A program made the translations under genes and the position numbers. The notes beneath the pieces are model-generated. The model did not search any database. It had not been told where the DNA came from and was given only the letters and a program-made list of their open reading frames with translations. This document shows, one piece after another, positions 15,613 to 42,641 of a stretch of DNA of 64,000 nt (the stretch's first letter is position 1; each line of letters opens with the position of its first letter). Source of the stretch: a virus; IMG/VR virus record IMGVR_UViG_3300028706_000004; one strand, 5' to 3'.

Positions 15613-15710
15613 TTTCCGTAAAATAGTTTACGGAAACTGCAGTTCTTATGCTTGTTACTTACACGGTAGAAGCTTTCTGTCGCTTATTATGTATTGACGG
15701 AGGTTTCAAT

Positions 15711-18700
15711 ATGCCAAACGAACTGCTTGATGACATTCAATTTAAAGCCCGAAACGGCGCTCAGATCAGTGTTGACAATGCCCAAGGGATTGTCGAATGT
15801 TTTGTTTCTGGCATAGGCAACAAAGACAGTGTTGGCGACATCGTTCTTCCCGGCGCCTTCAATGAGAGCCTAAAAAGAAGAAAGCCCAGAGTGGTTTGGG
15901 GACATAGCTGGAACGACCCCATTGGAAAAGTTTTAGAGATCTACGAAGTCGCTAACTCGGACCCACGACTTCCAGAAAAAATGAAGAGTGCTGGAATCGG
16001 CGGTTTGTTTGCAAAAGTCCAGTTCAATCTGGGTGCAGAAAAAGGGCGAGAGGCATTCGCTAACGTCGCCTTCTTCGGAGAAGAACAGGAATGGTCAATC
16101 GGCTATAAGACCCTTCAAGCCACTTTCGATCCGGTCAAGCAGGCCAACTTGCTCAAAGAGGTTGAACTTTATGAAGTAAGCCCTGTGCTGCATGGTGCCA
16201 ACCAACTGACAGGCACGATTTCTGTCAAGGACGGAGAATACGGTGCCTGTGGAATTGGTGGTTGTGAATGTGGGACAAAGAACCACATTGCTTCAGAACC
16301 AGATATTCAGGCAGAAGAAGAGGAAGCTTTCATTTTCGAAAAGGGTCAGATGATGGGACGAGTTCCCATGCAAATGATCGTTATTCCAATGCCTAAGAAA
16401 CCAGATAGCGATTCCCACCACGCCGATAGAGACATTTGGTCTCGTGGTGAGGCTGGTCCCATTGACATGGAAGCTCGCATGGAACTGGCTCAAGAAATTC
16501 ACTCACGAACAAAGGTACCGATCAAGATCGTTGAGGCCACCGAGAACATGGTGGTGTTCCTCCGCAAGATGGTGGATGGGACTAACCGCATGTATCGAAT
16601 GGGATACCACAAGGCCAGCGACGGCAGATACATGTTTGGCAAACCAGCACGAGTTAAACCACAAACGGTTTATTCCCCGGTTCAACCGAACATGCCGCCC
16701 ATCGGCCCAATGAGCCATAAGCCGAATCATCATGTCAGCCCAATTCAGGGAAAAGAAACAACAGAAGAAGCTAAATCTGATTATCTTATTTCCTGCACAT
16801 TGGACAACATGTTTGAGTTCAAAGACATGCTTCAACCAATTTTCGATTATTACAGAGTCACAGTGACCCCTAGTGTCGATGGGCTGTTGTGTAGTGATTA
16901 TCCGTCCGGATTTGAGGACGCAGCAGATACGGCTGTGAAGGCCCTAGGTGGAAGACTGGGGCGAGGTGGTGGCTTGGGAAAAGGCCGTAGGGCTGGGAGA
17001 GCCCTCACCGCAGCGTTCGACCCAAAAGCTTGGGATGGTGATGGCGACGGAATAGTTCAAGAAGGTACGCCTTTCCAGCGTCCATCTATTCCCGGTATCA
17101 ACACAAACTGGCCCGGCGAACCAAAAACCAGAATCAAACCCCCTGATTACCCAGATGACAGTGCCCACGTCAGAGAGGCACGGAAGCCTCGTCGTAATCC
17201 GAATCGAACTCGTCCGGGTAAACGAACTGTCCAGAATCGCAGGGTGGAGCGTGCCGCTGGCATGCGCTCAGAGACTAGGGACCATCGCCTCACGCCGACG
17301 CTCAGAGAGGGAGATTTTCAGATCAGTGAAACCCTCTTGATGCACACTGATACTGAACTAAACAAACGCCCGATACTTCTTGTCGAATTAGCTGACGGAA
17401 CTACCCAGCCGTTCTATATGCGTTCCGGTACAGGTGACGTTCTTCGAGATGCCGACGCTCTCGAATCGGGTGAAGGTGGTAGCCACGGCAATTGGGTTCC
17501 ATTTGACGGTTTTGGCCTCGGGCGAAGAACGGAGTGGTTTAGAAAAGAGAAATACGCTGATTCGGAAGGACCAACTGGTCCCGGAGAGCCTTTGCATCGG
17601 TATGGAAACGAAGAGCTCAAAAAGGTGGGCGAGACGTTAGATGCATCAGAGAATGTGCAAGAGATGCTCAAAGACCGTTCTCGACAAATACCCATGTATC
17701 ACGGTGGGGCTGATGAGCCAGAGGGCTATGTGCCCGGCGACGACTCCACGTTGAAGTACGCAAGAAGTGATGACCTCAACGAAATGTTGGGCCTGCCCTC
17801 ACATGAAGAATATACGAACGAAGTATTTAGCCAGATTGCTGAAGATGAACGAGCGGGCAGTGTGCGATCCAACACTTATAAATATGGTACTCGCAAACCT
17901 ACCGGGCCGAGAGAGGGAACGCCGATACGCGGGGGCCGAGGAGCTACTGCACGCACTGGAGCAGGTCCAGCCGCAGTAAATCCGCGAGGACCCGGTACCC
18001 GAACAGAAAATATTGAATGGGACGCACTGAAGGCGCAGCTTCCATCACAAGCTATTAGAAATATGTCGGTTAAGGAACGTAAAGACCGAATTGAAGATCT
18101 GGATAAAAAACTAGATGTTCTAGAGGCCCAGATGGACGAGGTGGGACGATTCGACGCTGAATATGCTGAGATGAAACAACGTTTCATGCAGTTGGATTCA
18201 GAACGAAGAAAGCATTTGATTTCTGCGGCAATTCATAGTTGGGAAGGTGGACGTAAAAGTTTTGTTCGTTTGCCCGTCGAATCTAAGGGTGTTGAACTTG
18301 AGCTAACGCCAGATGAGATCGATTCACTTCGTTCCCATATAAAAGCACTGATTGGCAAAAGCAAAGACAGCAAAGTAAATGGTGTTTTAGCAAAATATGA
18401 TCAGAAACTTGCTGCCAACAAAGATGGGGTAGTAAAAATCCCTAGAGGGCAATATCACGACTTCACCCATGCGTGGGAGAAAGTTTCGCCGCCTACCCAA
18501 AGTCGAATGCATCCCAAAACAGGTCGCGACATACTCGAATTCGCTGCACTTTCACCAACCCAAAAATTTAGGTCGTCGCAACTCGACCTGCCAGACAATA
18601 AATACAGAGGATTCGGGAATAAGAGAATCAACAATGGTGCTCATCCTGACATAACTCCAGCCAATCAGGCAAAAATGATGGAAGCTATAGGTGCTCCAGA

Positions 18701-20846
18701 GGGTGAACGTCGGGGTCTTTATTTGCCCGGTCGCGACTATTTGATGTTCGCAGACTTAAAAGAACACGGCTCTGCTTCACCCCGACGGTGGGCAATCATG
18801 GAAGGCCAATACACACACGCCACCAAACAGGGGCGTTCGCGAGTAGATCTGCCCCAACTCGCTGGTGAGCCGGTTGTCGAAACGTTAAGGGGTGCCCGTA
18901 GGGCCGACATGGGTGGACCCAATATGAGTAGAGGTGGCCGCACGAGAAGACAATCTCGCAGTGGATCTCAGTCACTTCGAGCTTTCCCGGGGGATACCGA
19001 CGCCCTATTTGACGAACCTACCGGCGAGGACATCATTCCTGATATCAGAGATGTGAGGCCAGAGGATCGGGCGGATATCGACCGCTGGAACGCAATGGAT
19101 GATGCTGCGCTTAGTCGTCTAGGACAACGTCGAGTTGAGAGAATCGCACGACGTTCCGAAGCTCGTCGCGAGGCAGGTCAAGCGGCGGAGCGGCGACAGT
19201 CGAATGATCTTTTGTCCCGATGGGATGAAGCAACCACTGGCACCAGTCTCGACCCTGCGCGTCGTGGCTTGAGGTCGGAGCAGAAAATCCCACAAAGGGC
19301 AACTGCCGACGAAGCTAAACCAGAGACTCGCGGTCGCCCCATGGGGCATGTAATGGAAGATTCACAAGAACGCTTTAAAGGTAAGAAGTTTGAAGAAGTT
19401 AAGCCCGACGATTGGGACGATTTGAGTACTGAAGATAAGTTCGCTCTCCTCAGTGCGGAAATGACTCCAAGTAAGAGCGGGATGAGGCAAATTGACTATG
19501 ACCGTATCTACAATGAATTAGACAAGATTATAGAAAAAAGAGAGCTTCGCAGAGACCGTTCAGAGGGTCGCTTTGAAACGATAGCGGAGCGACGCGCTCG
19601 AAGAGGCGGAGTCATACTCCCAGCTAGTGTTCGCAAGCGTGAAACCGAAGATAGAGAGCCCCAACGAACAACGGCACAAACAGCTAAAACAGAACGTAAA
19701 AAAGTTCTTAATAACTTAGAGTCATCGTTTGCTAATGCTGACAGTAGAGCGACCAACAGTGGGGATGTAGTTCGAAGTGAACACGCAGACATTTGGTCTG
19801 AAGCTTTAGACATAGTTTCAGGGTCGGATGATTTGACCCATTCCCAATTGCGTGCTCTTGATGGATTGTTCGAGAGTTATCTCAGCAGAGAGTCTGGCGA
19901 ACTGTCGCCGGTTGAAGGCGAATTGCGTGCTGCCGCGCTAAGTCGTAAGAGTCATATTGAAGATCTTCTTTCCGACTATGAGGGTGATCGATTTATTTCC
20001 GAAGGAGACACCCCTCAAATTCGAACTCTGGGTGGGGGTAGCGACGACCTAGACATTATGGAACTCAACAACCTCGAACTATTTTCTCCAAGCGGTTTAC
20101 GATCCATTCGACAAAACAGCAGCAAGCTGTCGGGTACATCAACGCGAGAGTATGTAGATGCCAGACGACGACAAGGTTTGCGTTCGCAAGCTCATACATC
20201 CAGAGAAGAAAAGATCGGAGATCTTCGCAACCTTTGGAGTAACGCGCGAGCAACTGGTGACAAAGAAGAAATGGATCGTCTGGAACGCCAATTGCGAGAG
20301 CTTGGAGCTAAACCCAGTAGAGGCAATCCTCGACCACAGTATTCAGCTCCATCACGCAGACTCAACCTCAACCAAAATAATGAAACCAGTACGGGCAACC
20401 GAGGCATGCGATCAGAGCGCGAAGGTCGTGCTCAGATTACGGGCGAAGCCACATGGTTTAAAAAAATCGAAGATTCTCTTCAAAAAGAAATCGATATGGC
20501 TTCACGAGACAAAGATCAGCAAACAGCTGATGCCCTCCGAACCTTGAAACGAACATTGGCTCGTCAAGAATCGGGTAAAACCGGCGACAAGCGCACTAAC
20601 GCTGGTTCGTTGACTGTCACACAGACAGAGATTGACGAGATGCTCGATGCTTTAATGCATGTTTTGGATCGTCAAACTGCGGAAAAGGGGTCTCGAACAG
20701 AGATGTTTGCGGAATTGATTGAAAAGCTTTCTTCTGCAGCTATTTCGACTTTCATATTGAAAGAAACAGAAGCAATTCAAAGCAGAACACGGAAAGCCAC
20801 GAACGAAGCAGGTCGTACAGTCGACATCCCAAATACGGATTTATAA
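15711..20846 (+). CDS. HK97-type prohead protease fused to a ~1540-aa multi-module extension
   Basis: Residues 1-173: GNKDS.GD....GAF, WGH (His), EWSIGY (Ser), LYEVSPV..GAN; GGAGGT RBS; 1711 aa. Confidence 0.9.
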   Translation: MPNELLDDIQFKARNGAQISVDNAQGIVECFVSGIGNKDSVGDIVLPGAFNESLKRRKPRVVWGHSWNDPIGKVLEIYEVANSDPRLPEKMKSAGIGGLFAKVQFNLGAEKGREAFANVAFFGEEQEWSIGYKTLQATFDPVKQANLLKEVELYEVSPVLHGANQLTGTISVKDGEYGACGIGGCECGTKNHIASEPDIQAEEEEAFIFEKGQMMGRVPMQMIVIPMPKKPDSDSHHADRDIWSRGEAGPIDMEARMELAQEIHSRTKVPIKIVEATENMVVFLRKMVDGTNRMYRMGYHKASDGRYMFGKPARVKPQTVYSPVQPNMPPIGPMSHKPNHHVSPIQGKETTEEAKSDYLISCTLDNMFEFKDMLQPIFDYYRVTVTPSVDGLLCSDYPSGFEDAADTAVKALGGRLGRGGGLGKGRRAGRALTAAFDPKAWDGDGDGIVQEGTPFQRPSIPGINTNWPGEPKTRIKPPDYPDDSAHVREARKPRRNPNRTRPGKRTVQNRRVERAAGMRSETRDHRLTPTLREGDFQISETLLMHTDTELNKRPILLVELADGTTQPFYMRSGTGDVLRDADALESGEGGSHGNWVPFDGFGLGRRTEWFRKEKYADSEGPTGPGEPLHRYGNEELKKVGETLDASENVQEMLKDRSRQIPMYHGGADEPEGYVPGDDSTLKYARSDDLNEMLGLPSHEEYTNEVFSQIAEDERAGSVRSNTYKYGTRKPTGPREGTPIRGGRGATARTGAGPAAVNPRGPGTRTENIEWDALKAQLPSQAIRNMSVKERKDRIEDLDKKLDVLEAQMDEVGRFDAEYAEMKQRFMQLDSERRKHLISAAIHSWEGGRKSFVRLPVESKGVELELTPDEIDSLRSHIKALIGKSKDSKVNGVLAKYDQKLAANKDGVVKIPRGQYHDFTHAWEKVSPPTQSRMHPKTGRDILEFAALSPTQKFRSSQLDLPDNKYRGFGNKRINNGAHPDITPANQAKMMEAIGAPEGERRGLYLPGRDYLMFADLKEHGSASPRRWAIMEGQYTHATKQGRSRVDLPQLAGEPVVETLRGARRADMGGPNMSRGGRTRRQSRSGSQSLRAFPGDTDALFDEPTGEDIIPDIRDVRPEDRADIDRWNAMDDAALSRLGQRRVERIARRSEARREAGQAAERRQSNDLLSRWDEATTGTSLDPARRGLRSEQKIPQRATADEAKPETRGRPMGHVMEDSQERFKGKKFEEVKPDDWDDLSTEDKFALLSAEMTPSKSGMRQIDYDRIYNELDKIIEKRELRRDRSEGRFETIAERRARRGGVILPASVRKRETEDREPQRTTAQTAKTERKKVLNNLESSFANADSRATNSGDVVRSEHADIWSEALDIVSGSDDLTHSQLRALDGLFESYLSRESGELSPVEGELRAAALSRKSHIEDLLSDYEGDRFISEGDTPQIRTLGGGSDDLDIMELNNLELFSPSGLRSIRQNSSKLSGTSTREYVDARRRQGLRSQAHTSREEKIGDLRNLWSNARATGDKEEMDRLERQLRELGAKPSRGNPRPQYSAPSRRLNLNQNNETSTGNRGMRSEREGRAQITGEATWFKKIEDSLQKEIDMASRDKDQQTADALRTLKRTLARQESGKTGDKRTNAGSLTVTQTEIDEMLDALMHVLDRQTAEKGSRTEMFAELIEKLSSAAISTFILKETEAIQSRTRKATNEAGRTVDIPNTDL

Positions 20847-20890
20847 GATGATGTCTACTAATACTAATAAGACGCAAGAGGTAGGATACA

Positions 20891-22708
20891 ATGTCTAATA
20901 GCGGTCTCCGAGGCAAACAATCGAAGTACCAATGCATGTTGAGCGGCGAAAAGGTCGCAAAGCCATGTGTCGGCTGCATCAACCCTAAGGGGTGTCTGTC
21001 CAGAGCCATGCAGTACAAGGAGCCTCAACAAATGGGTCTGGAAGAAGAAAACGTAGTCAAGCTGAACACCGATGGTACAGCGCTTACATGTTCTAAGGGC
21101 TACAGTACTACTGATTGCGAGTATACTGCAGGTAGTAAGATGTGCGGTAAGTGTGGCGCATCAGCGGTCGAACTGAAAGAGAGTCCAATGGAACAAGCCA
21201 TCGTTAATGATGAAACTCTGGACGACGAGGACGCAGTGCTGATCAAGGCACTTGAAGAAAAAGCCAGCGTCATGGACGAGGTCTCCGAGGTTGAAGCCGA
21301 AAAGCGTCGTATTGAAAAAGACACTCGCGATAACTCTGATACCCAATTAGAGGATGACGATGACGACCCGGATCACGACGAGCACGAAGCTACAGAGGCT
21401 AAATCTGAAGATGATGTAGAAGAAAAGACCGAAGATGAGTCAATCGATGAAAAGGTTGATAACGAACCAATTTCTGAAGACGAGCCGATCGTAGAAAAAA
21501 CTGAAGATGACGGTTGGGTCGGCCTAGAGGAAGAAAAGGACGAAAAAGCTGGCGTTATGATGCGCGAAAGCCGCCTAAACGTCGACGATGAGGAAGAAGA
21601 GGAAGAGGATGCCGAAGAGGAAGAGGCTCCTGCTGCTGCTGCTCCTCCTCCTGCTGCTCCTGCTGCCGATCCTGCCGCCGCTGCTCCAGCCGCTCCCGTA
21701 GAGGAAGCCCCTCCGGCTCCCGCTGCCGAAGAGGAAGAAGTTCCCCCAGCCCCAGCTCTTGCTGAGGAAGAGGAGGAGGAAGAAGATGAAGAATACGAAG
21801 AGTCCTCAGCTAAGAAATCTGTCGGTGCATATTTGTGTGCCCTCGACCGAAAGGTCTACCCCGGCAACGCCTCTGTTTGCGACGACTGCCCGGGCGGCTG
21901 CGTCTCTGAAAAGGGCATGCCCAGCTTGCTCGAAGTTGAACAAGCTCTTGAAGTCCAATTCAAGGGCGCAGAGTACGCAACGGTAATTGATTCTGTTTAT
22001 TCAGATCGCGCAGATCTCTTTATCTGCGATCTTGATGTTGACGGCAAAAAGGTTATCGAAGTATTCGTTGAAGCTAAGTCTGGAGAGGTTCTCGGCTTTA
22101 GCCGCCTCGACGATTCTGTCTTTGAACAAAAAGATGCTTTCGAAACAGTTGACCTTGTTGACTTCAGCGAGGCTGCCGAAATCGCGGTTAAGACAATCGA
22201 AGGTGTAGTCAACGCCGTAGAGCCGGATGTATTCGAATCTTTCGACTGCTACGCGATAGAAATTAATGGCGTAGATGGCAAGTCACATGATGTGTTCGTT
22301 GCTCTTGACGGTGAAGTTTTGGGTTATGACACATACGAGCCGGACGAGGCAGAGGCCATCGAGGCCGAAGCTGCTGAAATCGCCCTTAAGCGTGCGTTCT
22401 CAGACGATGAGCGCGACGATTTGGCCGATCAGGGTCACGCCATGAAGGATGGTTCATATCCGATTGTGTCGGAAGAAGATCTCCGTAATGCGGTTCAGGC
22501 TTATGGTCGGGCAAGTAACAAACCAGCAACAAAAGCTCACATTATGAAGCGAGCTAAAGATCTTGGTCTGGAAGAACTTATTCCGACCAACTGGGTTGCT
22601 GGTAGTGACGAAAAAGCGATCCTGAGTGCAGATGATGCAGAATTCATGGCTTCTCTGATCGAATTTGAATTACTCGCGGAGGAAACCAATAACAACGGTC
22701 CCATTTAG
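20891..22708 (+). CDS. Acidic scaffold-like protein: Cys knuckles, Glu/Ala/Pro tract, two PepSY-like domains, C-terminal YPI...HI..RA..LG domain
   Basis: Very Glu/Asp-rich; FSEAAEIAVK...YAIEI...HDVFVALDGEVLG PepSY pattern. Confidence 0.75.
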   Translation: MSNSGLRGKQSKYQCMLSGEKVAKPCVGCINPKGCLSRAMQYKEPQQMGLEEENVVKLNTDGTALTCSKGYSTTDCEYTAGSKMCGKCGASAVELKESPMEQAIVNDETLDDEDAVLIKALEEKASVMDEVSEVEAEKRRIEKDTRDNSDTQLEDDDDDPDHDEHEATEAKSEDDVEEKTEDESIDEKVDNEPISEDEPIVEKTEDDGWVGLEEEKDEKAGVMMRESRLNVDDEEEEEEDAEEEEAPAAAAPPPAAPAADPAAAAPAAPVEEAPPAPAAEEEEVPPAPALAEEEEEEEDEEYEESSAKKSVGAYLCALDRKVYPGNASVCDDCPGGCVSEKGMPSLLEVEQALEVQFKGAEYATVIDSVYSDRADLFICDLDVDGKKVIEVFVEAKSGEVLGFSRLDDSVFEQKDAFETVDLVDFSEAAEIAVKTIEGVVNAVEPDVFESFDCYAIEINGVDGKSHDVFVALDGEVLGYDTYEPDEAEAIEAEAAEIALKRAFSDDERDDLADQGHAMKDGSYPIVSEEDLRNAVQAYGRASNKPATKAHIMKRAKDLGLEELIPTNWVAGSDEKAILSADDAEFMASLIEFELLAEETNNNGPI

Positions 22709-22732
22709 GGGCTCCCCGAAAGGTGGGTCCGA

Positions 22733-25700
22733 ATGACCGAGTTCTCTCCAAAAAAAAGAACCTACCTCTCAGCAAGAATTCGCCGTAGTCGGCGAGATTT
22801 AGAAGCTGCTGGGCTGGACTTTCTTGAACGCAGAAACATTCTTGCTGCACAGCCAACCCTTAACGCCCAAATTGTAGTTAAGGCGCTTGATGGCAGCATC
22901 GGAGATTCCCCTGAACAGGAAAAAGATAAGTCCAAAAAACGCACAGCCGGTTCAGGAGTTAAAGAAATAGAGCCCGAGGTTCGTTACGACCCCAAGGGTG
23001 TTCGTGATCCCGGACAAGTTTTCAAACTGCATGTCACTGCTCGTGACCTCAAAACAGGTCAAGATAATTTCGGGTGGATTGATCCGCCTAAAGCAGTGCC
23101 GAAAGAAGAACAGCGCTCCAATATGGCTGACGCTATGCAGTGGCGAGCAACCCGACCTCAGATTCGGATACGGACTTACGATCAGGACCCAAGAACGGGT
23201 CAACCAATCATTGAGACTGAGGAAGAAATTAAGGTCAAAGGTCTCGGCAGAACCCTCAAAGACACCCTTCCGGGCCAAAGCCTTGGGGGACGTGCCGCCA
23301 GCGGCCTTGGTCTCATTGTTGACGCTTTAGGGAAGTTTCGTTGCCCCCCCGGTACCCCAGCAGCCAACCAGTTCACCGACGAGTTCGGCACAAACTGTTT
23401 TTCACCTGTGGAGGTATTACGCGACACAGTCCGGGGTCTTGTCAATAGTCTCAGATCCGGTAGAGGTCGAAGCTGGTCATTACCCGGTCGAGGCGACAGC
23501 GAAGCGGAACAGCTGAGATCCAATATCGCAGAACGGCGCGCAACCGCAGGTAAGGCCGGACAGCTTATTGGTAATACTGCATCGATTGAAGCAGCCTTGA
23601 TTGAACGCAACACCGTTATTCAATCTTTAATGGATCAGTACGGCATCTCGGCTGGAGACGAACTAAACGAGGATATGTGGTCATTGTTGGAAGCGATGAC
23701 CGACGTAGATACCGGTGATTTCCCTGATCTGGAATGGAAGGGATTGTTCACCGGCATGTTCGGAGAAGAACTCTGGGACGACAATCTTACGATGCGTCAA
23801 AATTTGGAAAAGATGCGTGCGACAGTACGCGAAGACGTATTCAGTTTCATGGGTGCACAAACCAAAACGGGCGCACAAGCAATCCGGGATGCGTATAGAG
23901 CCAAAGACCCCACTGCGATGGAAATGGTTGACGGTCTTGTTGGTCGACACGAATCAGCGATGCGAGGCTTCTTAGGTTCGACTCTTCACGAGTTCGGAGA
24001 CGATCCGAGAGCCATGAGCGGTCTCAAAAAGATTTCTTTCCGAGCCTACAACCCAGATTATGACGACTTCCAAAGCTATTGGGGTACCGAAGGGGAATGC
24101 ATTCCCCTCTGGGAAGGTACCGGCACCGGAATGGCTACCAAACTCGAATTCAACGCTACTGCCATTGCCCTGCGACCGTTTCAAGAGGGTGGACTAACTC
24201 ATGAGGGTCCAGATGGTCGACCGAAACTCGTACAGGTTGACGCTGGAGGTACCTTTTCAGCATCAGTAACAGACGCCGAGAAATGGGCGGCAATCGCAGA
24301 CTTTCTTACACATACTGAAAAAATGGAATACTGGCATAAACAATATGCAAATGACCTTACTGCTGCTGCTCACGGCGGAAGTCTCGAAGCCTTTTCCATG
24401 CATGTCGGATACCACGAACTTGCGCACGTTAAACAGTATCAACAGATTGCACAACGTGTGTTGGAAGCTTATGAGCGTGATGGTCAATTCTCGATTTACA
24501 AAAGGGATGGCACTGGACTCGAATCATTAACTGCACATCCTTCTGAATGGACAAACGAACAGTTCGTTATGGCCGTTGTCTCCACATTCCAAGATGCGCT
24601 TCCACCCGGCACCACTACCGACTTTCCCCCGATGGACATGGTCCAATTTGAGGGAAGCATGCTGCATCTTCTCGCAGGACAATATTACCAAGACATGGTT
24701 CAAGGTTTCCTGCAAGCAACCTCTGGTGGTTATGCAGAAGATATTACTCCGGGTCAATATGTGAGTCCTTTGGACGCCAGAGGACTACCTGTTCACAATT
24801 CGGCGAAAGCCCACCTCAACCTGTTGTTTCTAGAGGGAACAGCTGAACTAGCGGCTCTTAAACGAACCGGAGGCATCGCAGGCGACGAACTCAATGAAGT
24901 TCTTGATTGGATGGACGCAGACATAGCAGACGTTGTCTACGGGATTCCAGAGGTTGACGTTCCGTTTAAACCCGGTTCCATTGTTCCCGACACTGACATG
25001 GGTGAAGCGCCTTGGGACACTCCTCTCGAACCGGGCGAAGTTATGACGCCATCAGGCATCATCATTCCAACTAGTGCTGTGAAAAAGATAGAAGCAGCAG
25101 CGGCGAGGAAGAGGCAAGAACGCCAACTAACTACGGAGAAGCGAAAGCTCGAAACTGCTAGACGATTGCGGCATCGAACAGAAATACACAGTTGGGGCAG
25201 CGGCGGGGACGGTGAAATCAAAACTGCGTCCGATGGAACAAAATATGTTTGGATCGGAGCATTAAGTGGTGAGGGCGAATGGCAGGTGCTAATTGACGAC
25301 CTGTTCGACCCAGCAGTTTTGGTGGAGCTCATCGACAACGATATTTTGCCAGCCGTCGGCCCGTTTGAAGCATGGAATGGACAGTGGTTGGGCGGCGCTG
25401 AGGGCGGTATGCGCTCTAGGCGAGAATTGGGCCAATTCGACAACGGACCCAGAGTCGGAAAGTTTTCCGGAGAAACACACGAAGAACCAGACGGCTCAGT
25501 CTGGGAGTTTCGCCCTACTCTTCGGGATCGTCCAGAAAAAGGTGGTTTCTGGCGTGATATGACAGACCCTGCAAACCGACGAGAAATAGCCGAACGCGCC
25601 ACACGCAGACGCCAATTGGAGGCTCAAGAGGGTCGAAGCATGGGACGACTTGCTCGCCCGGGGGCTGGAAGCGAATGGGAAAACATTGTCCGGAGGGGCG

Positions 25701-33073: not shown

Positions 33074-33099
33074 ACGTAAACTATTATAGGTGACTACAC

Positions 33100-33744: not shown

Positions 33745-33746
33745 AT

Positions 33747-35687
33747 ATGGCGACTTCCTACACCTACACGAAGGAATTGGGCTGCTGCGACGGTTTAGAA
33801 GTGCAGGTCAAACGAACAATTTTACGAAAGCTTGACGACACCATTCCTTCGGGTCTAATCCGACATGCACGCGCATCTGACGAAACTATTGGCGAATATA
33901 AAGCTTTATCTCATAGAAATGGGAATACTCGCCAGTACGACATCAGCGTAACTACCAAAGCGGGCTTAGTTGGATCAGGTTCTCGTCTTGGACAAGCAGC
34001 TCAGGCTGCGGGTTCAATCATCACACCCGGAAACATTTCCAGAGTTCGAAGTCCCTTACGTTCCGCCGGATGGCGGGCAATCACTCCCGGTCTCCCCGGA
34101 GGTGGACGAGGCATTCGCAAACGTGGACGAGCACACCGATGCCCAGAGGGCTACCAATACGGTGGTCGGTTTACTGATAATCAACTATCCACTTGCGGAC
34201 AACAACTTTTCGATATCCCATCTGCTATCGGTGCAACCATTGCCGCCATTCGTAGGGCCGCTGCTGGTGCACCCGCAGGACCCGAAGGTGAAGTAATTCG
34301 TGGACGCTCAGGCCAAGACGTTCTAAAAAGCCGTAGGCCAGATATTCCCCGCGTCGGCAACGACGACCGCCAAGAACGCATTCGTGCTACTGGAAAAATC
34401 ATAGAAGCCATGGGTAAGCCCGACATAAACACGGCTCGGCTCGTCCGTCGAGATGGGTTCCAGTTGGAGCCGGTCGTCAGTCCTGCCGTCCTTAGAACCA
34501 TCCCAGACAACAGGGATATGGAAGGCGCCACCTACTTAATGAATCTCACATCCGTTGATGGAATGGGCGGCGAAGAGTTGGGTCTCCTGTCCAATACGGG
34601 AGTTACTAATATCTCTTACGTTCTTCCTGACGGATCTTCTCTTTCTATTGAAAAGGTTCGAGGGCTCACTGTCGGTGAACGTAGAAAACTGGGCCGCACG
34701 GTTAATGCCGCCATGAAGAAAGACAATTCTAAAGATCCTGCGGCCAGACTAAAATTTGTCGACGAGGAGACGGGAACAGGTATCGCATACACGGAGGACT
34801 GGAAAGGATCAGCTCGTTCCGTTGCGGATGCCCTCAAATCCAAGCCAGACAAAACACCCACAGTGGAAGCTGAAGTTCCTGAAGCTGAAGTGCCCGAAGG
34901 TGTTGGCGACAAAATTGGTAACGTCGATGACGCTGTAACCCACATCAATGGTGGGGGCAGTCTTGCTGAAATTGATCCATCTATTTTGCAGGCTGCGATG
35001 CGAAAAGCGGGTACGAAACGACCCGGAGGCATCTTTGAAGTCGGCGATAATCGTTACCTTATGCAGTCTTCGAAAACCGATTTCGACCATTTACACGTTG
35101 CTACGGCAGCAGAAATCCAAAATCATCTAGGTTTGGCAGCGTTCCCCCCAGCGTTTACGGGGAAGGGTGGCAAGCGGCGTGGCTACGTTCTCGCTGCCCC
35201 ATCTATGGATACTGATCGGACATTCGATGATGTAGATCCAGAAGACGCAGTACGCATGCTCTTATCTGACTTAATTCTCGGAGTCAACGATAGACCGCCC
35301 ACTGCCGTAGGGAAACTAGGCGAAGCAACAGTGCCGACACATATACCGTCTGCACTCAAAGATTTGGACGACATCAGCATACAAGAAAGAATCGAAGAAA
35401 GCATTTCTTCGATGAAACCACTTTCGAATGAAAGCATATATTCTTCGCATTACCAACAATTACGAGAAGCCCAACAGGAAGCATTTCGCAACGAACTAGA
35501 ACGCCTCCTTGAAAGAGCTCGTACATTCAATTTTACTGATTACAAGGATCGCCTTTACCGCGACGGTGCTTTATCTGCAGCCGAAAAAACTCACCTAAAT
35601 ATTATTCAAACAATTGTTGAAGCTCGTATCCAGACACTTGCTGCTGCCTACAACGCGATTCTCGCCCGCTTGGACGGTTCCCAATGA
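33747..35687 (+). CDS. Head-module protein with RCPxG..FTD..C motif and degenerate HipA/PI3K-like kinase C-terminus
   Basis: Start reassigned to MATSY; ...AEI..HLGL..P...DLILGVNDR... Confidence 0.75.
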   Translation: MATSYTYTKELGCCDGLEVQVKRTILRKLDDTIPSGLIRHARASDETIGEYKALSHRNGNTRQYDISVTTKAGLVGSGSRLGQAAQAAGSIITPGNISRVRSPLRSAGWRAITPGLPGGGRGIRKRGRAHRCPEGYQYGGRFTDNQLSTCGQQLFDIPSAIGATIAAIRRAAAGAPAGPEGEVIRGRSGQDVLKSRRPDIPRVGNDDRQERIRATGKIIEAMGKPDINTARLVRRDGFQLEPVVSPAVLRTIPDNRDMEGATYLMNLTSVDGMGGEELGLLSNTGVTNISYVLPDGSSLSIEKVRGLTVGERRKLGRTVNAAMKKDNSKDPAARLKFVDEETGTGIAYTEDWKGSARSVADALKSKPDKTPTVEAEVPEAEVPEGVGDKIGNVDDAVTHINGGGSLAEIDPSILQAAMRKAGTKRPGGIFEVGDNRYLMQSSKTDFDHLHVATAAEIQNHLGLAAFPPAFTGKGGKRRGYVLAAPSMDTDRTFDDVDPEDAVRMLLSDLILGVNDRPPTAVGKLGEATVPTHIPSALKDLDDISIQERIEESISSMKPLSNESIYSSHYQQLREAQQEAFRNELERLLERARTFNFTDYKDRLYRDGALSAAEKTHLNIIQTIVEARIQTLAAAYNAILARLDGSQ

Positions 35688-38600
35688 GACAGTTCGCTAT
35701 TATCAAAGACGTTAGTTCGGATAAACTTTTTGCAATTATTGTTAAAGATGATGATTTTACTGTCTGTCATGGTGTCCATGCTGCCGGTAAAAAGTGGGCT
35801 GAAAGTTACAACAAGGGTTTAACCAAATCCATTTATGACGATCTTCAGCCGGGAATTTCCGTTGGATCGTTCGCGCCCGTAAGAGCGACAACACAAGCTT
35901 TGATTGATGAGGCAACCGAAGGGAAGCCCGTTCGTTTTCCTGATCACTCACAGCTTGTATATGTCAAGTCAGTTAACTACAGATATGCCGGAGAGATTCC
36001 GCAAGTAAAAGATGCTGGGCTATCAAATCTGACAGATAAAGATTTCTTTATTGGAGCAGACTATAAGGGATCAGCTTTTCGTGCCGATTCTGCAAGACTT
36101 TCACTTTTAGCCAAAGCACGCTTAGGACATTTCGGAGCCGATTCTAAAGGTTTTAATTTCACCGAAAAAGGAACAGATCAGAAGGCCCTAAACGAAGAAT
36201 TATTTCAAACTGCTCGGGGGTCCGGGAATGCACGTCGTGCAGCTAAAGCAGTACTTTTAGAGAAACATTTAAACCTAGAAGAACATCCGGGGTATCTCGG
36301 AACAAAAGAACATTCGTCATCTATCCGTACAAAAGCTAACCGTCTTGGTCGCAGACTCGCCCCGGGAGGCGGCGGAGGCAGGGGTCGCGGAGGTATTCGC
36401 AAAATCGGACGGTCAATGAAAGACCCGTTTGATCCAAACGCTTGGGACGGAGATAATGATGGGATAGTTCAGGAGGGCACCGTATGGGAACGTCCCTCAA
36501 TACCGGGCGTTAACACAAATCTTCCGGGCCAACGTCATACCCGAACCAAGCCTCGTAGCTTCCCACGCGATGACGCGGACGGTGTCGAATTTAGATTGCG
36601 CAATCGTCGTGAAGAGAACCGTGCCCAAGACGAGATTTTAAGTACTCCGGTTGGAGAGGTTATTGAAGATTTCCCCGAAGCAACCGAAGCTCTCAGAAAC
36701 ACACTTTCAGGATTCTCTGAAGATGATGACATTTGGGAAACCCCACTAAGGGATATCACGGATGATGGAGAATATTTTGGTGAAGATGATTTAGATCGAC
36801 TTCTTGATATTGCTGTACCGCGACGCCGAGAAGGCACTACTGACAGCTTCTATCGCGATGAACAAGGTATGCGTTCTCAGCGTCTACAGCCCGGGGACAA
36901 GGTCACCGTTCGCCACAGGGGCGAGGACACTGAGGGAACTATCGTCCGATTGGGGCAAGGCGGAGCGAGCGGCGTAGGCACTGACTCCTATGTAGTTGAT
37001 GTCGGTGAGCGGCAATCACTATGGAAACGCTCAGACGAGATTCTGGGCAGCCCGGGCGGCATGCCCTCTCAACGAGGCATGCGTTCTGAGCGATATGACA
37101 TCACACGAGATGAAGCTGGCAAATGGCGTGTCATTGATACGGGCAACAGAAACATGCGGCTTCCCGAAGAATATGACAACCGTGAGGAAGCTTTAAGAGA
37201 AGCGATACGAAGAGATAACCCTCGTGGCGGCATGCGCTCCCAGCGTCGCCCATATGCAGGAACGATTCCAGACCGGTCAGGCGAAACTCGACAAGAACGA
37301 GAGAATCGCAGAATGCGAGGCGAGTTCGACGAAATGACCCGAGTCGGGCGAGCCGCCAGAGAAACCCATGAAGAGCCAGACGGTTCAATCTATGAATTCC
37401 GTCCAACTCTTCACGACAAACCTGAACGGGGTGGCAATTGGATTGACATTACAGACCCCGGCCAAAGATCTGAAATGGCTAGGCGTGCTACGGAAAGGCG
37501 CCAACACGAAGCCCAAACGGGTACGAGCATGGGGCGGTTAGCGCGACCGGGTGCTGGTAGTGAATGGGATCGAATTACAAGGGGTGGAATGCGCTCTAGG
37601 GCGCGCGACGCTTCAGTAGATCGTGCCTCTCAATTGCAGGGCATGCGGTCAAGTCGCAGACGACGCCGAGGTCAAGCTGAACCCGGACTTGATCGTCACT
37701 CAGACATTGATGGTCAGATTTGGGAAAACCTTACCGATGCTGAAAGAGCGCATGTCGGAACGGCGATTGACACAGAAATGCGTAGACGAATGCACGGACT
37801 CGCATGGAATGACATGAACGGCATAGATCCTCGCAAGCCAAAACAAAAAAAGCGTTCAGAAATGACCCCCGAAGAAGAAATGGAAGCAACCTTCCACGTC
37901 AACCCCCTCGGAGGGATCGTAAAACAGTATTTCGATCAAGCAATCAGACCAGACTTTGAAAAAGACTATGAAGGTGACGAGCTTGCCCAAAAACTTAGGG
38001 ACTATATTTTCACCGACGCCGATATCGACACCATCGAAGCCGCGATAGAAAGTCAAATCGAAGCGACTGGCGACGCGACCGACAAGGCTGCCGACCAGCT
38101 CAAGGACCAGTTAAGGGAAATTCGAATCTACCGAAACATGGTCGAACAAAGCAACAACGGCAAAGACCCTGACGCCTTCCGATTCCTTGAGCATCTTACG
38201 CCGACACAGCGTGCCCGAATCTACAACCGTGCAAACGGTGCTGATAAAGATCGTCTAGAAACAAGTAAAGCTTCTTGGGGTCTCAGTAAAGGCAATCGCA
38301 TCAATTCGACTATCGGCAGCACGTTCACGGAACGTCAAGCCGCTATTGATGCTGTTGAGCCCGGCGTTAGGCGCCGTGCGGGAGAGTTCTCCCGATCAAT
38401 GGCACAACGTATTTGGGCTCCAAACCCGAACAATGCCTATCGTCGTGCGCTTAGAAAAGCTCGACGCGGAGGGGCGGGAAGTTCTCTTCCCGGTTTCCGT
38501 CGTGAAGAGGATAAAAGATCAATAGTTGCCCGCCGTGTCGCTCAACTGCGACGCAAGTTGCGGGTCGTTAAGGGTCGTAAAGGTATCCAAGGTGCAATTA

Positions 38601-39586
38601 ATGCTTCTGAAAAGAAACAAATCAAGAAAGCAGTCGATTTCGACGCAGATGGCAAGTTGGTTACAAGCGACGAAGGTATCGCACGTCTCGGCAAAGCCTC
38701 CAGAGCACTACTTGGCGACAAGTCGGTTCTGAAAGATGTCAGAATGAAGGGTCGTGGCGGTAAGGGCACAGACGGAGCTAGCGAAGATGAGGTCGAGAAG
38801 ATACTCAATCAGAACCCAGAAATGGCTGTCATTTGGGACGCTATGGGCATGAATGATTTGCCGGTTGTTGTAGACGATGACAACTTCGAAGCCCTAATTG
38901 ATGCTGGCCATCCCGTCATAGGTCGAGGACACGGAAGCGCTTCCAATGCAACCGATTATCTTGATGACGAATTGCGTTTCCTCCCCGGAGGAGGCGGAGA
39001 AGCCTCAGGCAAGGGCGAATACTGGTCAACCGGTCAAGGCAGTTGGGGTAGTTGGCAAACCGTAGAAGGAGGCAACACGGTTGCTGTTCTTACACCCAAT
39101 GTTCGCCGCATGGACGGAGACACCCTAGACGCCGAATTTACCGCTAATAGATCCGTTAGTCGGGCATTCGAGCTTGTACGAGCAACCTATCCCGGAGATG
39201 AATTGGAAAAAGCGGACATTGCCGAAGTCGTCTCCAGAATGGATGCTGAAATAGCAAAAATAACAGATCTTGCCGAAGGTGCCCCTATTTGGGAAACCGA
39301 AGTTGGTCAACTCTGGACACACTTGTTGGATTCGATCCGCACCAGCGGCAACCCCGACTCTTTGAATGCCATGTTGCTGCTTAACAAAATTAATAACACC
39401 AGCAACGGCAGAAACCTTATTGCCCCCATCTTGGGTTATGACACAATCCAGTCGGGTAGCGTAGAGTTGGTGATGAACCGCAGTGCCGTCATCACCCTAG
39501 GCAGAACCCTTGGTTCTTCAGGATTGAGTCAATTCTTCAAGCAAGCATCAGATGTACGCAGCGAAGGCAGAAGGGCTAGAGCATGA
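35684..39586 (+). CDS. Large polyvalent head-module protein (DGDxDG motif, 5 GMRS sites, C-terminal ART-like domain)
   Basis: 1300 aa; ATGA coupling; FDPNAWDGDNDGIVQEGT; LPVVV...RGH...GKGEY. Confidence 0.82.
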   Translation: MRQFAIIKDVSSDKLFAIIVKDDDFTVCHGVHAAGKKWAESYNKGLTKSIYDDLQPGISVGSFAPVRATTQALIDEATEGKPVRFPDHSQLVYVKSVNYRYAGEIPQVKDAGLSNLTDKDFFIGADYKGSAFRADSARLSLLAKARLGHFGADSKGFNFTEKGTDQKALNEELFQTARGSGNARRAAKAVLLEKHLNLEEHPGYLGTKEHSSSIRTKANRLGRRLAPGGGGGRGRGGIRKIGRSMKDPFDPNAWDGDNDGIVQEGTVWERPSIPGVNTNLPGQRHTRTKPRSFPRDDADGVEFRLRNRREENRAQDEILSTPVGEVIEDFPEATEALRNTLSGFSEDDDIWETPLRDITDDGEYFGEDDLDRLLDIAVPRRREGTTDSFYRDEQGMRSQRLQPGDKVTVRHRGEDTEGTIVRLGQGGASGVGTDSYVVDVGERQSLWKRSDEILGSPGGMPSQRGMRSERYDITRDEAGKWRVIDTGNRNMRLPEEYDNREEALREAIRRDNPRGGMRSQRRPYAGTIPDRSGETRQERENRRMRGEFDEMTRVGRAARETHEEPDGSIYEFRPTLHDKPERGGNWIDITDPGQRSEMARRATERRQHEAQTGTSMGRLARPGAGSEWDRITRGGMRSRARDASVDRASQLQGMRSSRRRRRGQAEPGLDRHSDIDGQIWENLTDAERAHVGTAIDTEMRRRMHGLAWNDMNGIDPRKPKQKKRSEMTPEEEMEATFHVNPLGGIVKQYFDQAIRPDFEKDYEGDELAQKLRDYIFTDADIDTIEAAIESQIEATGDATDKAADQLKDQLREIRIYRNMVEQSNNGKDPDAFRFLEHLTPTQRARIYNRANGADKDRLETSKASWGLSKGNRINSTIGSTFTERQAAIDAVEPGVRRRAGEFSRSMAQRIWAPNPNNAYRRALRKARRGGAGSSLPGFRREEDKRSIVARRVAQLRRKLRVVKGRKGIQGAINASEKKQIKKAVDFDADGKLVTSDEGIARLGKASRALLGDKSVLKDVRMKGRGGKGTDGASEDEVEKILNQNPEMAVIWDAMGMNDLPVVVDDDNFEALIDAGHPVIGRGHGSASNATDYLDDELRFLPGGGGEASGKGEYWSTGQGSWGSWQTVEGGNTVAVLTPNVRRMDGDTLDAEFTANRSVSRAFELVRATYPGDELEKADIAEVVSRMDAEIAKITDLAEGAPIWETEVGQLWTHLLDSIRTSGNPDSLNAMLLLNKINNTSNGRNLIAPILGYDTIQSGSVELVMNRSAVITLGRTLGSSGLSQFFKQASDVRSEGRRARA

Positions 39587-39897
39587 TTACTCCAGAAAAT
39601 CATAAGGAATATCACATAATGCTCTCAACGCTTCTGCGGTACCCCCCGTTCTCCACCGAAGACGACGAGAATGGCGACGAATTGAATTACATCGCTGGTA
39701 AAGAACTAATGGCCTACCACGACGAAGTTATCGCGCCAGCATCCGAGGGCGGAAAACTAGATTGGGAACTAGAAGGCGAACCCTTCGAAGAGTTCAGAGA
39801 AAAATGGAAAGAAGAACTTGAAGAGGCTGAACTCTACCAATCCAGACATGGCGACGATTTCGCTGCCGCCGCAAAAGCTGCCAGCGGCGATGAATAA
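39583..39897 (+). CDS. Small acidic protein, candidate immunity/partner protein
   Basis: 104 aa, strongly acidic, ATGA-coupled to the ART-like domain gene. Confidence 0.65.
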   Translation: MITPENHKEYHIMLSTLLRYPPFSTEDDENGDELNYIAGKELMAYHDEVIAPASEGGKLDWELEGEPFEEFREKWKEELEEAELYQSRHGDDFAAAAKAASGDE

Positions 39898-39899
39898 CG

Positions 39900-42641
39900 A
39901 TGCCCGAGGCACGCACGGACTCCGAAACTGCCAAGAAAGCGCAGGCTCTAAGAGAGGCTGCTGAACTCGGCTGTACCGGTGCGCACCGTCATCCCGATGG
40001 AACATGGATGGCGTGCAGCACCATGGAAGAATACGAGCGCCTCACCAACGGCGAAAAAGAAAAAAGCGCTTTAGATGTCGTTGAAGAAACTCAGAAGATC
40101 CGTTCCCAAAAGGGTCGCAAACGCAAGAAGAAAACTAAGCGCCAATGGGACAAATTGAGAGAACGGGGTGTCACTGGAATTGACACTCTGTCTGGTGGCG
40201 GACTCGTATCCGGCAAGGGTATGACTTTTCGACCTGTAGACGGTGACACGGACGTTTTCGACAACATCAACCAAGCGCGTCGTAGAGCACGCCAATTGGG
40301 ATGTATCGGTGTATCTAGACGTATATCCCGTAGCGGACGTAGGGTTTGGACCCCGTGCACCAACATGACGGACTATGCACGAGCCACTGGCAGTACAGCT
40401 CTTGGAAGGCGCTACCAGCAAAGACTGGAACGTCAACGAATACGAAACATTGTTCGTGACGAGCTATCTAAAATGAAACGACGTAAAAAGCGTCTATTCG
40501 AAGAAGTGTACGAAGTTAAAGGTATTGGTCGCCGTATCGGACGTACCGCACGGTTTGACCCAAAGGCTTGGGATGGCGACAACGACGGGATAGTTCAAGA
40601 GGGCACCCCATACGCACGCCCTGCCATCCCCGGGCTTAACACCAACCTCCCCGGGAAAAAAAGAGGTGTGCGTTCCGTTTGGGATGGGAAACCCGGCACG
40701 CTGAAACGTCCAGAACCTAAAGCAAAGCCAGAACCCGTAACCGACGAAGTCAGAATGGCGTCTCTTAGCAAGGAAATTGACAAGTTGCGAACGGAGAAAC
40801 TCGACCCTCTCCTTCAACAACTCAAGAAAGCCCAAAAGGAAGGTAGTCACGCTGACGTTGCTCGCATTAGGGGCATGATGGCGCCACTTCAACAGGAAGA
40901 ATCGCGTCTTCGTGAAGAACTCGGTACCGCCATGGGTAAAAGCAGATCGGCTCTATCGTTAGGAGCTTCTGCAAATGGTGGCATACGTTCTCGACGGCAA
41001 ATCGATCATATGCTTCAGACCCCTGAGCAAAATATTGAAGATATGGGAGCTGACATAGATGAGTATTTCGCTTTCTTAGATGAACATAATCGAATTGATT
41101 TTCATAGATATTCCATTCATCGACCTAACGATAGGCGAATTCGGCAAGTAGGAGAACCGTCAACAGACGAATATGCGAGTGGAGACGAGTTCGCAGATTT
41201 ACCCGAAATAGATCAAAACATTATCGAAGAGCATGACGAGCTTTGGAGTCAGGTCGAGTGGTGGGCAGACTTTATTGAAAATTCAGGGATTGAACGCAAC
41301 GACTTAACAACTGAACTCAGGGAAAAAGAAGATGAGCTCGATAGCGCAACGGAAAGCGCTTCAAGGCCATATCACGCAGACACTAGAAATTTCTTAGCGG
41401 CTATCGACGGCGACGAAGATAGGGATACCTTTATTGAGCGTGAATACGGTCCCTTCGAAACCAACGAAGCAGATCTGCCATACGGTGGCAGTAGTGAACC
41501 TGAGTGGCGTGAAGATCAATGGGGAAGGGATACCTTCAACGAATACACCGGCTACTGGGATGATTTGATTCGGATACGAGAAGAAACTTCAGATATACAA
41601 CGTGAAATAGACTTCATTCAGGATCAGATTAGTAAATACCACGGGAACGGCACTGAATCCGCCAGAGACAATTATCGCGAAGCCCTAGAAGCCAAGTTGG
41701 CTCAAAGGGCCAACGCAGACGCAATCAGGGGCGAGCTCGCTGAAGGGCGAATTGCCCTCGACCCCGGTCAGGGTCTGCGTTCGCGTAGAGATCGTTTAAG
41801 CCCTAGTGAAAAAGAGTGGCTTAAGATACTTCAAGATAATCCCGGTCTTTGGGCTGAAGCCCCAGCAAGTGTGCGAGCGGTTGCTTCAGACAAGATGAAA
41901 CGTGAAGCACTCCAGATACGCAATGATTTTTCAGGTGGGATGCGAAGCGGACGCTTTGGTAGCGGCGGAAAAGCAATGGGCCAACGAATACTTGCCAAGG
42001 TCAAGCCAGAACACAGAGACAAGGAAGATAGAACCCTTTACTTCATTGGTGGTACAACGGGTTCCGGTAAGTCCACTTTGATTAGCAATGGCTCCATAAG
42101 TGTTCCAAACGACACTGAAGCTGCCCACATAGATCCGGATTTCATCAAAACGGGCCTAGAGGGCTGGGACCCCAAAAACGCTATGGCATTCCACGGAGCA
42201 TCCGTTACAGCGACTCGCGGCGTTCTGGATAGTGCCATCAACGCCAAGATGGATGCTGTAGTGCAGGGCACGGGGAAACGAGCCGAACACCTCCGTACTG
42301 CTAGATCGCGCGGTTATTCGACTGTTGGTCATTTTGTTCATGTCCCCGGCGATGTAGCAAATAAGAGGATCGCCCAACGAAAAGCAGCTGGTGGGCCTGA
42401 TATCCCAACCGGTTTTGGTACCCAAATCGCTGGAGAACTAAGAGGCCATGTAAGTAGACAAATAACAGAAGGCCTATATGACGAGTTCTTCCTGTGGGAG
42501 AACACTGGAGATGCGCCAAGACTGATAGCGTTCAGAAATAGAGATGGGCATTTCGAAATCAATAGCAAAACTGAGTTCGATGCCTTCTTCGGTGACATCG
42601 GTGCAAAGTATGTAGAAAGGTATTGGAAAGATAACCAATGA
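39900..42641 (+). CDS. Polyvalent protein: two DUF3721-like Cys motifs, DGDxDG motif, C-terminal zeta toxin-like P-loop kinase
   Basis: 913 aa; GGTTGSGKST, HIDPDFIK, VVQGT, RIAQR...GG..IP. Confidence 0.85.
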   Translation: MPEARTDSETAKKAQALREAAELGCTGAHRHPDGTWMACSTMEEYERLTNGEKEKSALDVVEETQKIRSQKGRKRKKKTKRQWDKLRERGVTGIDTLSGGGLVSGKGMTFRPVDGDTDVFDNINQARRRARQLGCIGVSRRISRSGRRVWTPCTNMTDYARATGSTALGRRYQQRLERQRIRNIVRDELSKMKRRKKRLFEEVYEVKGIGRRIGRTARFDPKAWDGDNDGIVQEGTPYARPAIPGLNTNLPGKKRGVRSVWDGKPGTLKRPEPKAKPEPVTDEVRMASLSKEIDKLRTEKLDPLLQQLKKAQKEGSHADVARIRGMMAPLQQEESRLREELGTAMGKSRSALSLGASANGGIRSRRQIDHMLQTPEQNIEDMGADIDEYFAFLDEHNRIDFHRYSIHRPNDRRIRQVGEPSTDEYASGDEFADLPEIDQNIIEEHDELWSQVEWWADFIENSGIERNDLTTELREKEDELDSATESASRPYHADTRNFLAAIDGDEDRDTFIEREYGPFETNEADLPYGGSSEPEWREDQWGRDTFNEYTGYWDDLIRIREETSDIQREIDFIQDQISKYHGNGTESARDNYREALEAKLAQRANADAIRGELAEGRIALDPGQGLRSRRDRLSPSEKEWLKILQDNPGLWAEAPASVRAVASDKMKREALQIRNDFSGGMRSGRFGSGGKAMGQRILAKVKPEHRDKEDRTLYFIGGTTGSGKSTLISNGSISVPNDTEAAHIDPDFIKTGLEGWDPKNAMAFHGASVTATRGVLDSAINAKMDAVVQGTGKRAEHLRTARSRGYSTVGHFVHVPGDVANKRIAQRKAAGGPDIPTGFGTQIAGELRGHVSRQITEGLYDEFFLWENTGDAPRLIAFRNRDGHFEINSKTEFDAFFGDIGAKYVERYWKDNQ

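Follow-up and report, generated by a model that had tools for sequence, protein, structure and literature searches.

Recurring junction peptides in the giant head-module proteins of an uncultured phage family are candidate processing sites of polyvalent polyproteins

Introduction

Polyvalent proteins were defined in 2017 by Iyer, Burroughs, Anand, de Souza and Aravind, who unified their zincin metallopeptidase (MPTase) hub domain with lethal factor and predicted that zincin MPTases autoprocess polyvalent proteins into functional units, before or after delivery (PMC5512222). In phages and plasmids few large genes are more common than those of polyvalent proteins, and cutting has been predicted since 2017 with the cutting signal left undefined. 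The subject of this paper is a set of five giant open reading frames (ORFs) on the 91-kb IMG/VR virus contig IMGVR_UViG_3300028706_000004, which comes from an uncultured phage (CheckV completeness estimate 61%) and of which we analysed a stretch of 64,000 nucleotides, here called the window. The giants lie in the head module, between the portal and the capsid gene, and a short peptide, G[MLIV]RS, recurs along their products at the borders of domain-sized modules. We lean, from sequence comparisons, towards reading these peptides as processing sites of packaged polyvalent polyproteins.

The giants resemble polyvalent proteins in that they adjoin virion genes and combine unrelated enzyme modules, in this case proteases, a zeta-like kinase and a module with a ParB-like DGHHR motif; one of the proteases is a putative HExxH...E zincin. 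They are multi-domain proteins: S78, zincin, zeta-toxin kinase and DUF3721 domains were detected in them, together with modules bounded by linkers. On the other hand, PMC5512222 gives no cleavage-site or linker motif, whereas a lineage-variable junction peptide punctuates the giants described here, and the assemblin-like protease is always C-terminal in PMC5512222, whereas S78 is N-terminal in our case. The new element is the set of lineage-specific, co-varying junction peptides at module borders; a literature search for the junction peptide returned no description of it, and turned up only the unrelated restriction enzyme GmrS.

The prohead proteases of tailed phages are the other obvious point of reference. 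The consensus of T4 gp21 is L/I-x-E and that of phiKZ gp175 and SPN3US gp245 is A/S/G-x-E, and in these phages many head and ejection proteins, the capsid protein included, are cut at one short consensus, as proved by mass spectrometry (PMC5694885, PMC10052503, PMC7411985). The present locus shares with them a head-module protease, a short motif common to several proteins, several sites per protein and propeptide-like N-terminal units. Outside the phages, the site consensus of potyvirus NIa and of the core-protein proteases of adenovirus, African swine fever virus and poxviruses differs between related viruses. To our knowledge, a co-evolving protease/site system of such a kind is undescribed for tailed phages.

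Results and Discussion

Motif enrichment and conservation

The head module lies on the + strand and runs from the portal gene (13612-15612) to the gene of the HK97-fold capsid protein (42864-44198). Seven ORFs lie between them, in the order giant 1, an acidic 605-residue protein, giant 2, giant 3, a 650-residue protein, giant 4 and giant 5. The giants and their sites are the following.

15648..20846, + strand: giant 1, 1732 residues counted from 15648; five sites at 17259, 19266, 20094, 20175 and 20403
22733..29338, + strand: giant 2, 2201 residues; five GMRS sites at 25406, 25706, 27302, 27596 and 27857
29338..32661, + strand: giant 3, 1107 residues; a single GLRS at 29914, immediately following a DGD...NTN tag (see the last section)
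35684..39586, + strand: giant 4, 1300 residues; five GMRS sites at 36866, 37076, 37229, 37586 and 37640
39900..42641, + strand: giant 5, 913 residues; GVRS at 40665, GIRS at 40980, GLRS at 41772 and GMRS at 41937

The start of giant 1 is probably 15711, which the aligned N-termini of its orthologues favour over the first ATG at 15648.

A preliminary description of this DNA had listed these 20 sites, had counted 13 exact GMRS among them and had estimated that about 0.1 would arise by chance. All 20 positions are correct (13 GMRS, five GLRS, one GVRS and one GIRS). In 5000 residue shuffles of the five giants, a comparison that the description had proposed, the mean number of G[MLIV]RS sites was 0.70 with a maximum of 5, and the mean number of GMRS was 0.084 with a maximum of 2. 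GMRS is the commonest tetrapeptide of the five giants.

The motif is confined to these proteins. The six-frame ORFs of the window and of the whole 91-kb contig hold only one further site, a GIRS, outside the giants, and two long proteins from outside the head module (1259 and 2258 residues) have none, in line with the earlier remark that the motif had not been noticed in non-head proteins. G[MLIV]RS sites are likewise absent from the portal and capsid proteins and from the two smaller proteins of the module:

13612..15612, + strand: portal protein, 666 residues, Pfam Phage_portal (E 2.7e-47)
20891..22708, + strand: acidic scaffold-like protein, 605 residues, C-terminal half kept in 15 of the 15 relatives compared
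33735..35687, + strand: conserved core protein, 650 residues, found in 15 of the 15 relatives compared
42864..44198, + strand: major capsid protein, HK97 fold, 444 residues, Pfam Phage_capsid (E 1.8e-45)

The Pfam matches establish the portal and capsid identities that had been proposed from the letters alone. The acidic and the 650-residue protein, both conserved in all 16 genomes, have no Pfam or PHROG match.

The relatives were collected by a search with the capsid protein, which gave 411 related IMG/VR contigs; portal-to-capsid modules were assembled for 15 of them (labelled G001 to G015), and all 15 have the same module gene order. Across the relatives, methionine (30-fold), leucine (7-fold) and phenylalanine (3-fold) are enriched at the middle position of the motif and valine and isoleucine are not. 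The residue class [M/L/I/V] proposed before is thus right in its first two members, but phenylalanine has to take the place of the other two, and the extended consensus reads [R/G]-G-[M/L/F]-R-S-x-R. The GVRS and GIRS of giant 5 are aligned with GMRS or GLRS in orthologues.

Synonymous codons vary at every degenerate position of the motif, as the preliminary description had pointed out. The motif is retained in orthologues whose flanks are only 17-43% identical, and the flanks are unrelated at no fewer than 14 of the 20 sites here and at 45 of the 45 sites of G013. These observations support the view that selection acts on the motif at the peptide level. With codon differences at each degenerate position, the DNA offers no homology on which to recombine, and we reject a DNA repeat or recombination site. 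An internal translation start at the motif methionine is also rejected: leucine and phenylalanine codons that are unable to start replace it, and the motifs of other lineages have no methionine.

Position of the sites at module borders

Homology blocks were defined by comparing the five giants with every ORF of the related contigs in BLAST. A block end is no more than 5 residues away from 15 of the 20 sites and no more than 10 from 18 of them; random placement would put 4.9 sites within 5 residues, and none of 5000 permutations reached 15. Giant 5 illustrates the pattern. In the relatives its N-terminal unit (residue 1 to about 250) and its kinase (from about 690) are kept, and the pieces between the sites at residues 256, 361, 625 and 680 are gained or lost. 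In an AlphaFold2 model of this protein, built with 18 orthologues, all four sites are in or at segments with a predicted local distance difference test score (pLDDT) below 50, namely 234-279, 349-363, 606-624 and 674-687, and confident helical or alpha/beta units are found between these segments. Giant 1 of G002 has an insertion, compared with that of G003, that spans precisely one site to the next, and over six genomes the median spacing of the sites is 135 residues. That the motif is the junction of domain-sized modules, placed in flexible linkers, is well supported, and the claim that the sites fall at domain borders is borne out.

The two examples that had been given for this claim also hold. 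The site at residue 680 of giant 5 is just upstream of a zeta-like domain, which Pfam recognises at residues 700-830 (PF06414, 39.8 bits against a cutoff of 22.3) and in which the Walker A motif GxxGxGK is invariant in 18 orthologues; and GMRS stands on both sides of each of the three copies of a repeated cassette.

25406..25717, + strand: cassette copy 1, about 100 residues, in giant 2, GMRS at each end
27302..27607, + strand: cassette copy 2, in giant 2, GMRS at each end
37229..37597, + strand: cassette copy 3, in giant 4, GMRS at each end
41997-42389, + strand: zeta-toxin-like kinase, end of giant 5, Pfam Zeta_toxin

Such an arrangement could also be produced by the copying of modules, the motif being a functionless remnant, i.e. 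a recombination junction or duplicated linker that has spread with the cassettes. The cassette copies, flanked by the motif at both ends, and the shuffling of modules at the motif speak for this reading. The recombination-tolerant junction that had been suggested earlier survives to the extent that relatives have gained, lost or exchanged modules precisely at the motif, but as a recombination site in the DNA it is rejected on the codons. The remnant reading fails to account for the differing codons and the unrelated flanks described above, for the survival of the motif between flanks of about 20% identity, or for the genome-wide switching of the motif between lineages described below, and we regard it as improbable.

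Junction peptides in related phages

Thirteen of the 16 related IMG/VR phages have a recurring junction peptide of their own, present in 11-45 copies each where at most one is expected. G[MLF]RS is the top tetrapeptide of the giants in G001, G002 and G003; G011, G012 (19 sites) and G013 also show strong enrichment. The 45 sites of G013 all have unique contexts and are 50-400 residues apart, with some tandem doubles. The search of related contigs that the preliminary description had called for thus recovered the same linker in these six; others carry different peptides, which we found by de novo search of the genomes without GxRS:

G009: R-G-M-A-S-R, 13 copies, plus three GMRS
G008: S-T-R-S-S, 23-25 copies
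G010: R-[F/L]-S-S-G, about 23 copies
G015: G-L-S-S-G-[R/K], 19-25 copies
G004 and G005: I-[S/T]-G-x-M, 11-18 copies

A classification of G004 as motif-free was dropped after a gapped search revealed I[ST]GxM. We also reject the idea that every apparently negative relative has one alternative motif: in G006, G007 and G014 no crisp junction peptide was found, only Pro/Ala/Arg/Lys-rich linkers, and the same is true of a whole clade.

The peptides replace one another at orthologous junctions. Synonymous codon variation is seen in these peptides as well. At three aligned sites G012 has GLRS where G009 has GMAS, the first site past the DGD...PG tag is GMAS, GLRS or LSSG depending on the genome, and the junction preceding the zeta kinase is GMRS, GLRS or GFRS in some genomes and GMAS or GFAS in others. 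On the capsid tree the motif classes follow the clades and have switched several times. In every genome the acidic protein and the 650-690-residue protein are essentially site-free. By these comparisons the phage family has at least five junction peptides, each specific to a lineage, and GxRS is one of them. Within one genome the peptide is uniform, between relatives it differs, and its conservation is at the peptide level; a trans-acting, co-evolving reader is therefore implied. The eukaryotic viral polyproteases offer a parallel, with sites of 4-7 residues between units that are uniform per genome and shift between relatives; their enzymes are unrelated to those found here.

One candidate for such a reader is a host protease that would cut the peptide after ejection, so that the lineage versions would reflect the hosts. 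The clade structure of the motif classes is what host range might also produce. However, close relatives differ in their motif (the S78 domains of G009 and G012 are 84% identical), and housekeeping bacterial proteases seldom recognise strict motifs of 4-6 residues. We consider a host enzyme very improbable as the explanation.

More distant relatives were also searched. A megablast of the module against 50,697 phage records gave no close DNA relative. The nearest cultured phages are Brevibacterium phage Cantare and the Gordonia phages Chidiebere and GMA6, with capsids that are 46-48% identical; all three have a similar portal-to-capsid effector block, without GxRS. In Chidiebere (locus L082, 11838-25151) the layout is alike but the effector-like genes are separate, with no giant fusions and no junction peptide; the genes of its block encode an RNA ligase, a VIP2-like ADP-ribosyltransferase, two proteins annotated as 'head maturation protease', an endolysin and a hydrolase. 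The repeat RLTDARTPTAH of the cultured relatives is an unrelated tail-fibre repeat.

Candidate proteases

The giants contain a prohead protease domain and, as the sole other protease-like element, a zincin-like domain:

15780-16217, + strand: Peptidase_S78 prohead protease, N-terminal in giant 1, detected with Pfam and PHROG
23573..24916, + strand: zincin-like metallopeptidase domain of giant 2, candidate processing enzyme, with HELAH at 24413-24427 and E-x-x-x-E at 24833-24847

Giant 2 begins with a site-free N-terminal unit of about 890 residues that holds the zincin domain, and its five GMRS sites are downstream. The residues H, E, H, Q, E and E of the domain are invariant in nine orthologues, and HExxH and ExxxE in 9-11. 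A profile of the zincin finds it in 11 of the 16 genomes, that is in all 11 that have GxRS, GMAS, STRS or xSSG, and in none of the three motif-less ones. In G004 and G005 the matching place in giant 2 is occupied by another HExxH domain. Homology of this domain to the zincin was considered and rejected, as only the active-site helix aligns (hhalign probability 18%).

The AlphaFold2 model of the zincin has a predicted template modelling score (pTM) of 0.78. In an exhaustive structural alignment its first match is the catalytic domain of anthrax lethal factor (1yqy_A, Z 8.3), followed by lethal-factor-like domains, PPEP-3 (Z 5.6), M36, thermolysin and many other zincins. A zincin peptidase is a reasonable reading of the modelled domain, because the list of fold matches is uniformly zincin and the metal-binding residues are invariant. 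Atlas searches gave weak leads only, on the theme of zincins and polyvalent proteins, and a locus search with the zincin region found a near-identical relative only.

The nearest solved folds belong to M34 (lethal factor, PPEP-1, PPEP-2 and PPEP-3), and they have in common with the present domain the HExxH and the downstream Glu. The differences are that Pfam ATLF and PDB sequences give no match here, that the score is borderline and that the domain is embedded in a phage protein of 2201 residues; even with a profile no sequence match to M34 was obtained, and the resemblance is one of fold (Z 8.3). Judging by the model, the closest folds to the zincin, lethal factor and PPEP, are sequence-specific endopeptidases. 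M34 enzymes read extended linear motifs, lethal factor preferring basic upstream residues and a hydrophobic P1' residue. Across the motif classes the glycine and the large hydrophobic residue persist and the third position drifts between R, A and S. A zincin cutting at G|M/L/F would account for this conservation no less well than would a serine protease with R|S as its scissile bond.

The S78 domain is the alternative within the giants. Residues 45-190 of giant 1 match PF04586 Peptidase_S78 with 43.2 bits (cutoff 21), and the PHROG match is phrog_80, head maturation protease (E 2.1e-26), so that the protease domain proposed earlier at this place is confirmed. S78 might cut the motifs within the prohead, at R|S here and at A|S or S|S in other lineages, in the way that T4 gp21 and phiKZ gp175 process internal head proteins. 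Head processing is the canonical role of S78, which here stands at the beginning of the module as part of a motif-bearing giant. The variable residue is followed by Ser in most classes (GMR-S, GMA-S, GLS-S, STR-S), which recalls the cuts of HK97 (K|S) and herpesviruses (A|S), both made by assemblin-fold proteases.

The domain is, however, nearly invariant: identity is 70-86%, and the catalytic blocks do not differ at all, in a comparison that takes in five motif classes and three motif-less genomes. Cutting by S78 would moreover put the variable position at P1, normally the main specificity determinant, and I[ST]GxM fits it poorly. The capsid has a putative maturation stretch x-V/Q-K|D-V-Y-S (around residues 139-142) that is conserved in all motif classes; its cut, which we take to be the K-D bond from its position relative to HK97, is unlike the motif. 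In T4, phiKZ and SPN3US the capsid bears the consensus of the protease, which ends in Glu, whereas in the present phage the capsid, portal and scaffold-like proteins are without the motif, the motif is basic or small, and it changes between close relatives while S78 does not. A consensus shared by the capsid and core head proteins, the hallmark of the T4 and phiKZ type, was not found. We therefore hold S78 to be a doubtful candidate for the enzyme that reads the motif.

The peptide might also be left uncut and serve as a docking motif for a co-evolving partner (the capsid interior, the 650-residue protein, the scaffold-like protein or DNA) that tethers or orders the modules during packaging or ejection. 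The motif is a repeated linker signal with basic flanks and is conserved as a peptide, all of which such a function would share, and N4 vRNAP, a polyvalent protein with an MPTase, is packaged uncut (PMC5512222), so that giants need not be processed. Against docking, the candidate partners (the capsid, about 70% identical, the 650-residue and the scaffold-like protein) are similar in all classes and in motif-less genomes, and no co-varying reader is visible among them; swaps of modules exactly at the motif and tandem doubles are typical of polyprotein cleavage sites. We think docking unlikely, about on a par with cutting by S78 or slightly below it.

Taken together, we propose that the five giants would be head-module polyvalent polyproteins, in each of which a conserved N-terminal unit precedes a series of cargo modules of domain size, and that the flexible linkers between the modules would carry the peptide [R/G]-G-[M/L/F]-R-S-x-R as a recognition signal. 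Most likely the peptide marks where an endopeptidase encoded by the phage would cut, freeing separate cargo proteins in the prohead or after ejection into the host; peptide and reader would co-evolve, giving each lineage its own version. Packaging in the virion is suggested by the position of the genes between portal and capsid and by the fusion to a prohead protease. If the peptides are cut, the zincin of giant 2 is the cutter we favour, acting at G|M/L/F with the hydrophobic residue at P1', although we would call this a possibility well short of even; S78 at R|S is less favoured, and the remainder falls to another or a host enzyme. In its full form the proposal is that the family runs a true polyprotein strategy, in which a fast-evolving zincin in one giant cuts all giants at a lineage-specific peptide of 4-6 residues, enzyme specificity and dozens of sites changing in concert. 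This we put forward tentatively.

Several points weigh against this interpretation. A large clade of relatives has no crisp motif and only Pro/Ala/Arg/Lys-rich linkers, and N4 vRNAP and the recurrent Ser after the putative cut, both mentioned above, point away from cutting and away from the zincin, respectively. The Z of 8.3 is borderline, within the range that the tool calls common for unmatched models; the zincin has no Foldseek match in the PDB and no profile match among PDB sequences, and its nine orthologues match no Pfam family, MPTase-PolyVal, ATLF and all peptidase families included. The zincins are only 17-49% identical even among G[MLF]RS genomes, and those within the GxRS class are as divergent (17-33%) as those of different classes, so that a strict co-variation of zincin clade and motif class is not upheld; the association of zincin and motif is further confounded by shared ancestry. 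STRS lacks a hydrophobic residue for the S1' pocket of a zincin. Finally, where mass spectrometry has proved the cuts in T4, phiKZ and SPN3US, we infer cleavage from the sequences, and with it the cutting enzyme, the scissile bond, packaging and ejection.

If the peptides are processing sites, they would provide a parsing rule for thousands of unannotated giant phage proteins and a natural series of orthogonal protease/site pairs, and they would show a protease and dozens of its substrates changing specificity together. Should the zincin be the enzyme, the MPTase domains of polyvalent proteins would for the first time have a defined cleavage code, and the co-evolution of protease and sites familiar from eukaryotic polyprotein viruses would have its equivalent among phages. 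Even if uncut, the peptide would represent a type of linear signal new to phage head assembly.

Other features of the giants

A few observations on individual giants deserve mention. The conserved N-terminal unit of giant 5 contains two small Cys-containing, DUF3721-like elements (C-x-G-x-H...W-x-x-C-S/T-N) at 39930-40030 and 40270-40370, and the Pfam DUF3721 match in this protein has E 4e-11. In giant 2, a ParB/sulfiredoxin-like DGHHRW was seen by eye at about residues 1420-1465 (26990-27130), in the module between two GMRS-bounded cassettes; this module has a weak match to phrog_2859 (E 1.2e-6) and among the relatives compared is kept only in G001.

Giant 4 has conserved N- and C-terminal modules and a variable middle. 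Its C-terminal 260 or so residues (38800-39586) are kept by every GxRS-class genome as well as by G008 and G009, and were not detected in G004, G005, G006, G010 and G015; residues 1051-1150 gave one weak partial match in one negative-class genome. The module has no family match. By eye it has an R...S-T...E pattern, and it could be an ADP-ribosyltransferase.

A second shared motif, FDPxAWDGDxDG[IL]VQEGTxxxRPxIPGxNTNxPG, closes the conserved N-terminal unit of giants 1, 3, 4 and 5, at approximately 17034-17140, 29890-29913, 36440-36540 and 40560-40664. This is the DGD tag referred to above. It is present in nearly all 16 related genomes irrespective of their junction peptide, and the first junction site is 0-60 residues downstream of it. 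The tag may be a packaging or anchoring part of the giants. In G011 (L147:14198-18825) giant 1 is split into two ORFs, one of 586 residues with S78 and one of 978 residues that starts at the DGD tag. Read from the sequence, this is a natural gene fission that separates the protease unit from the cargo string.

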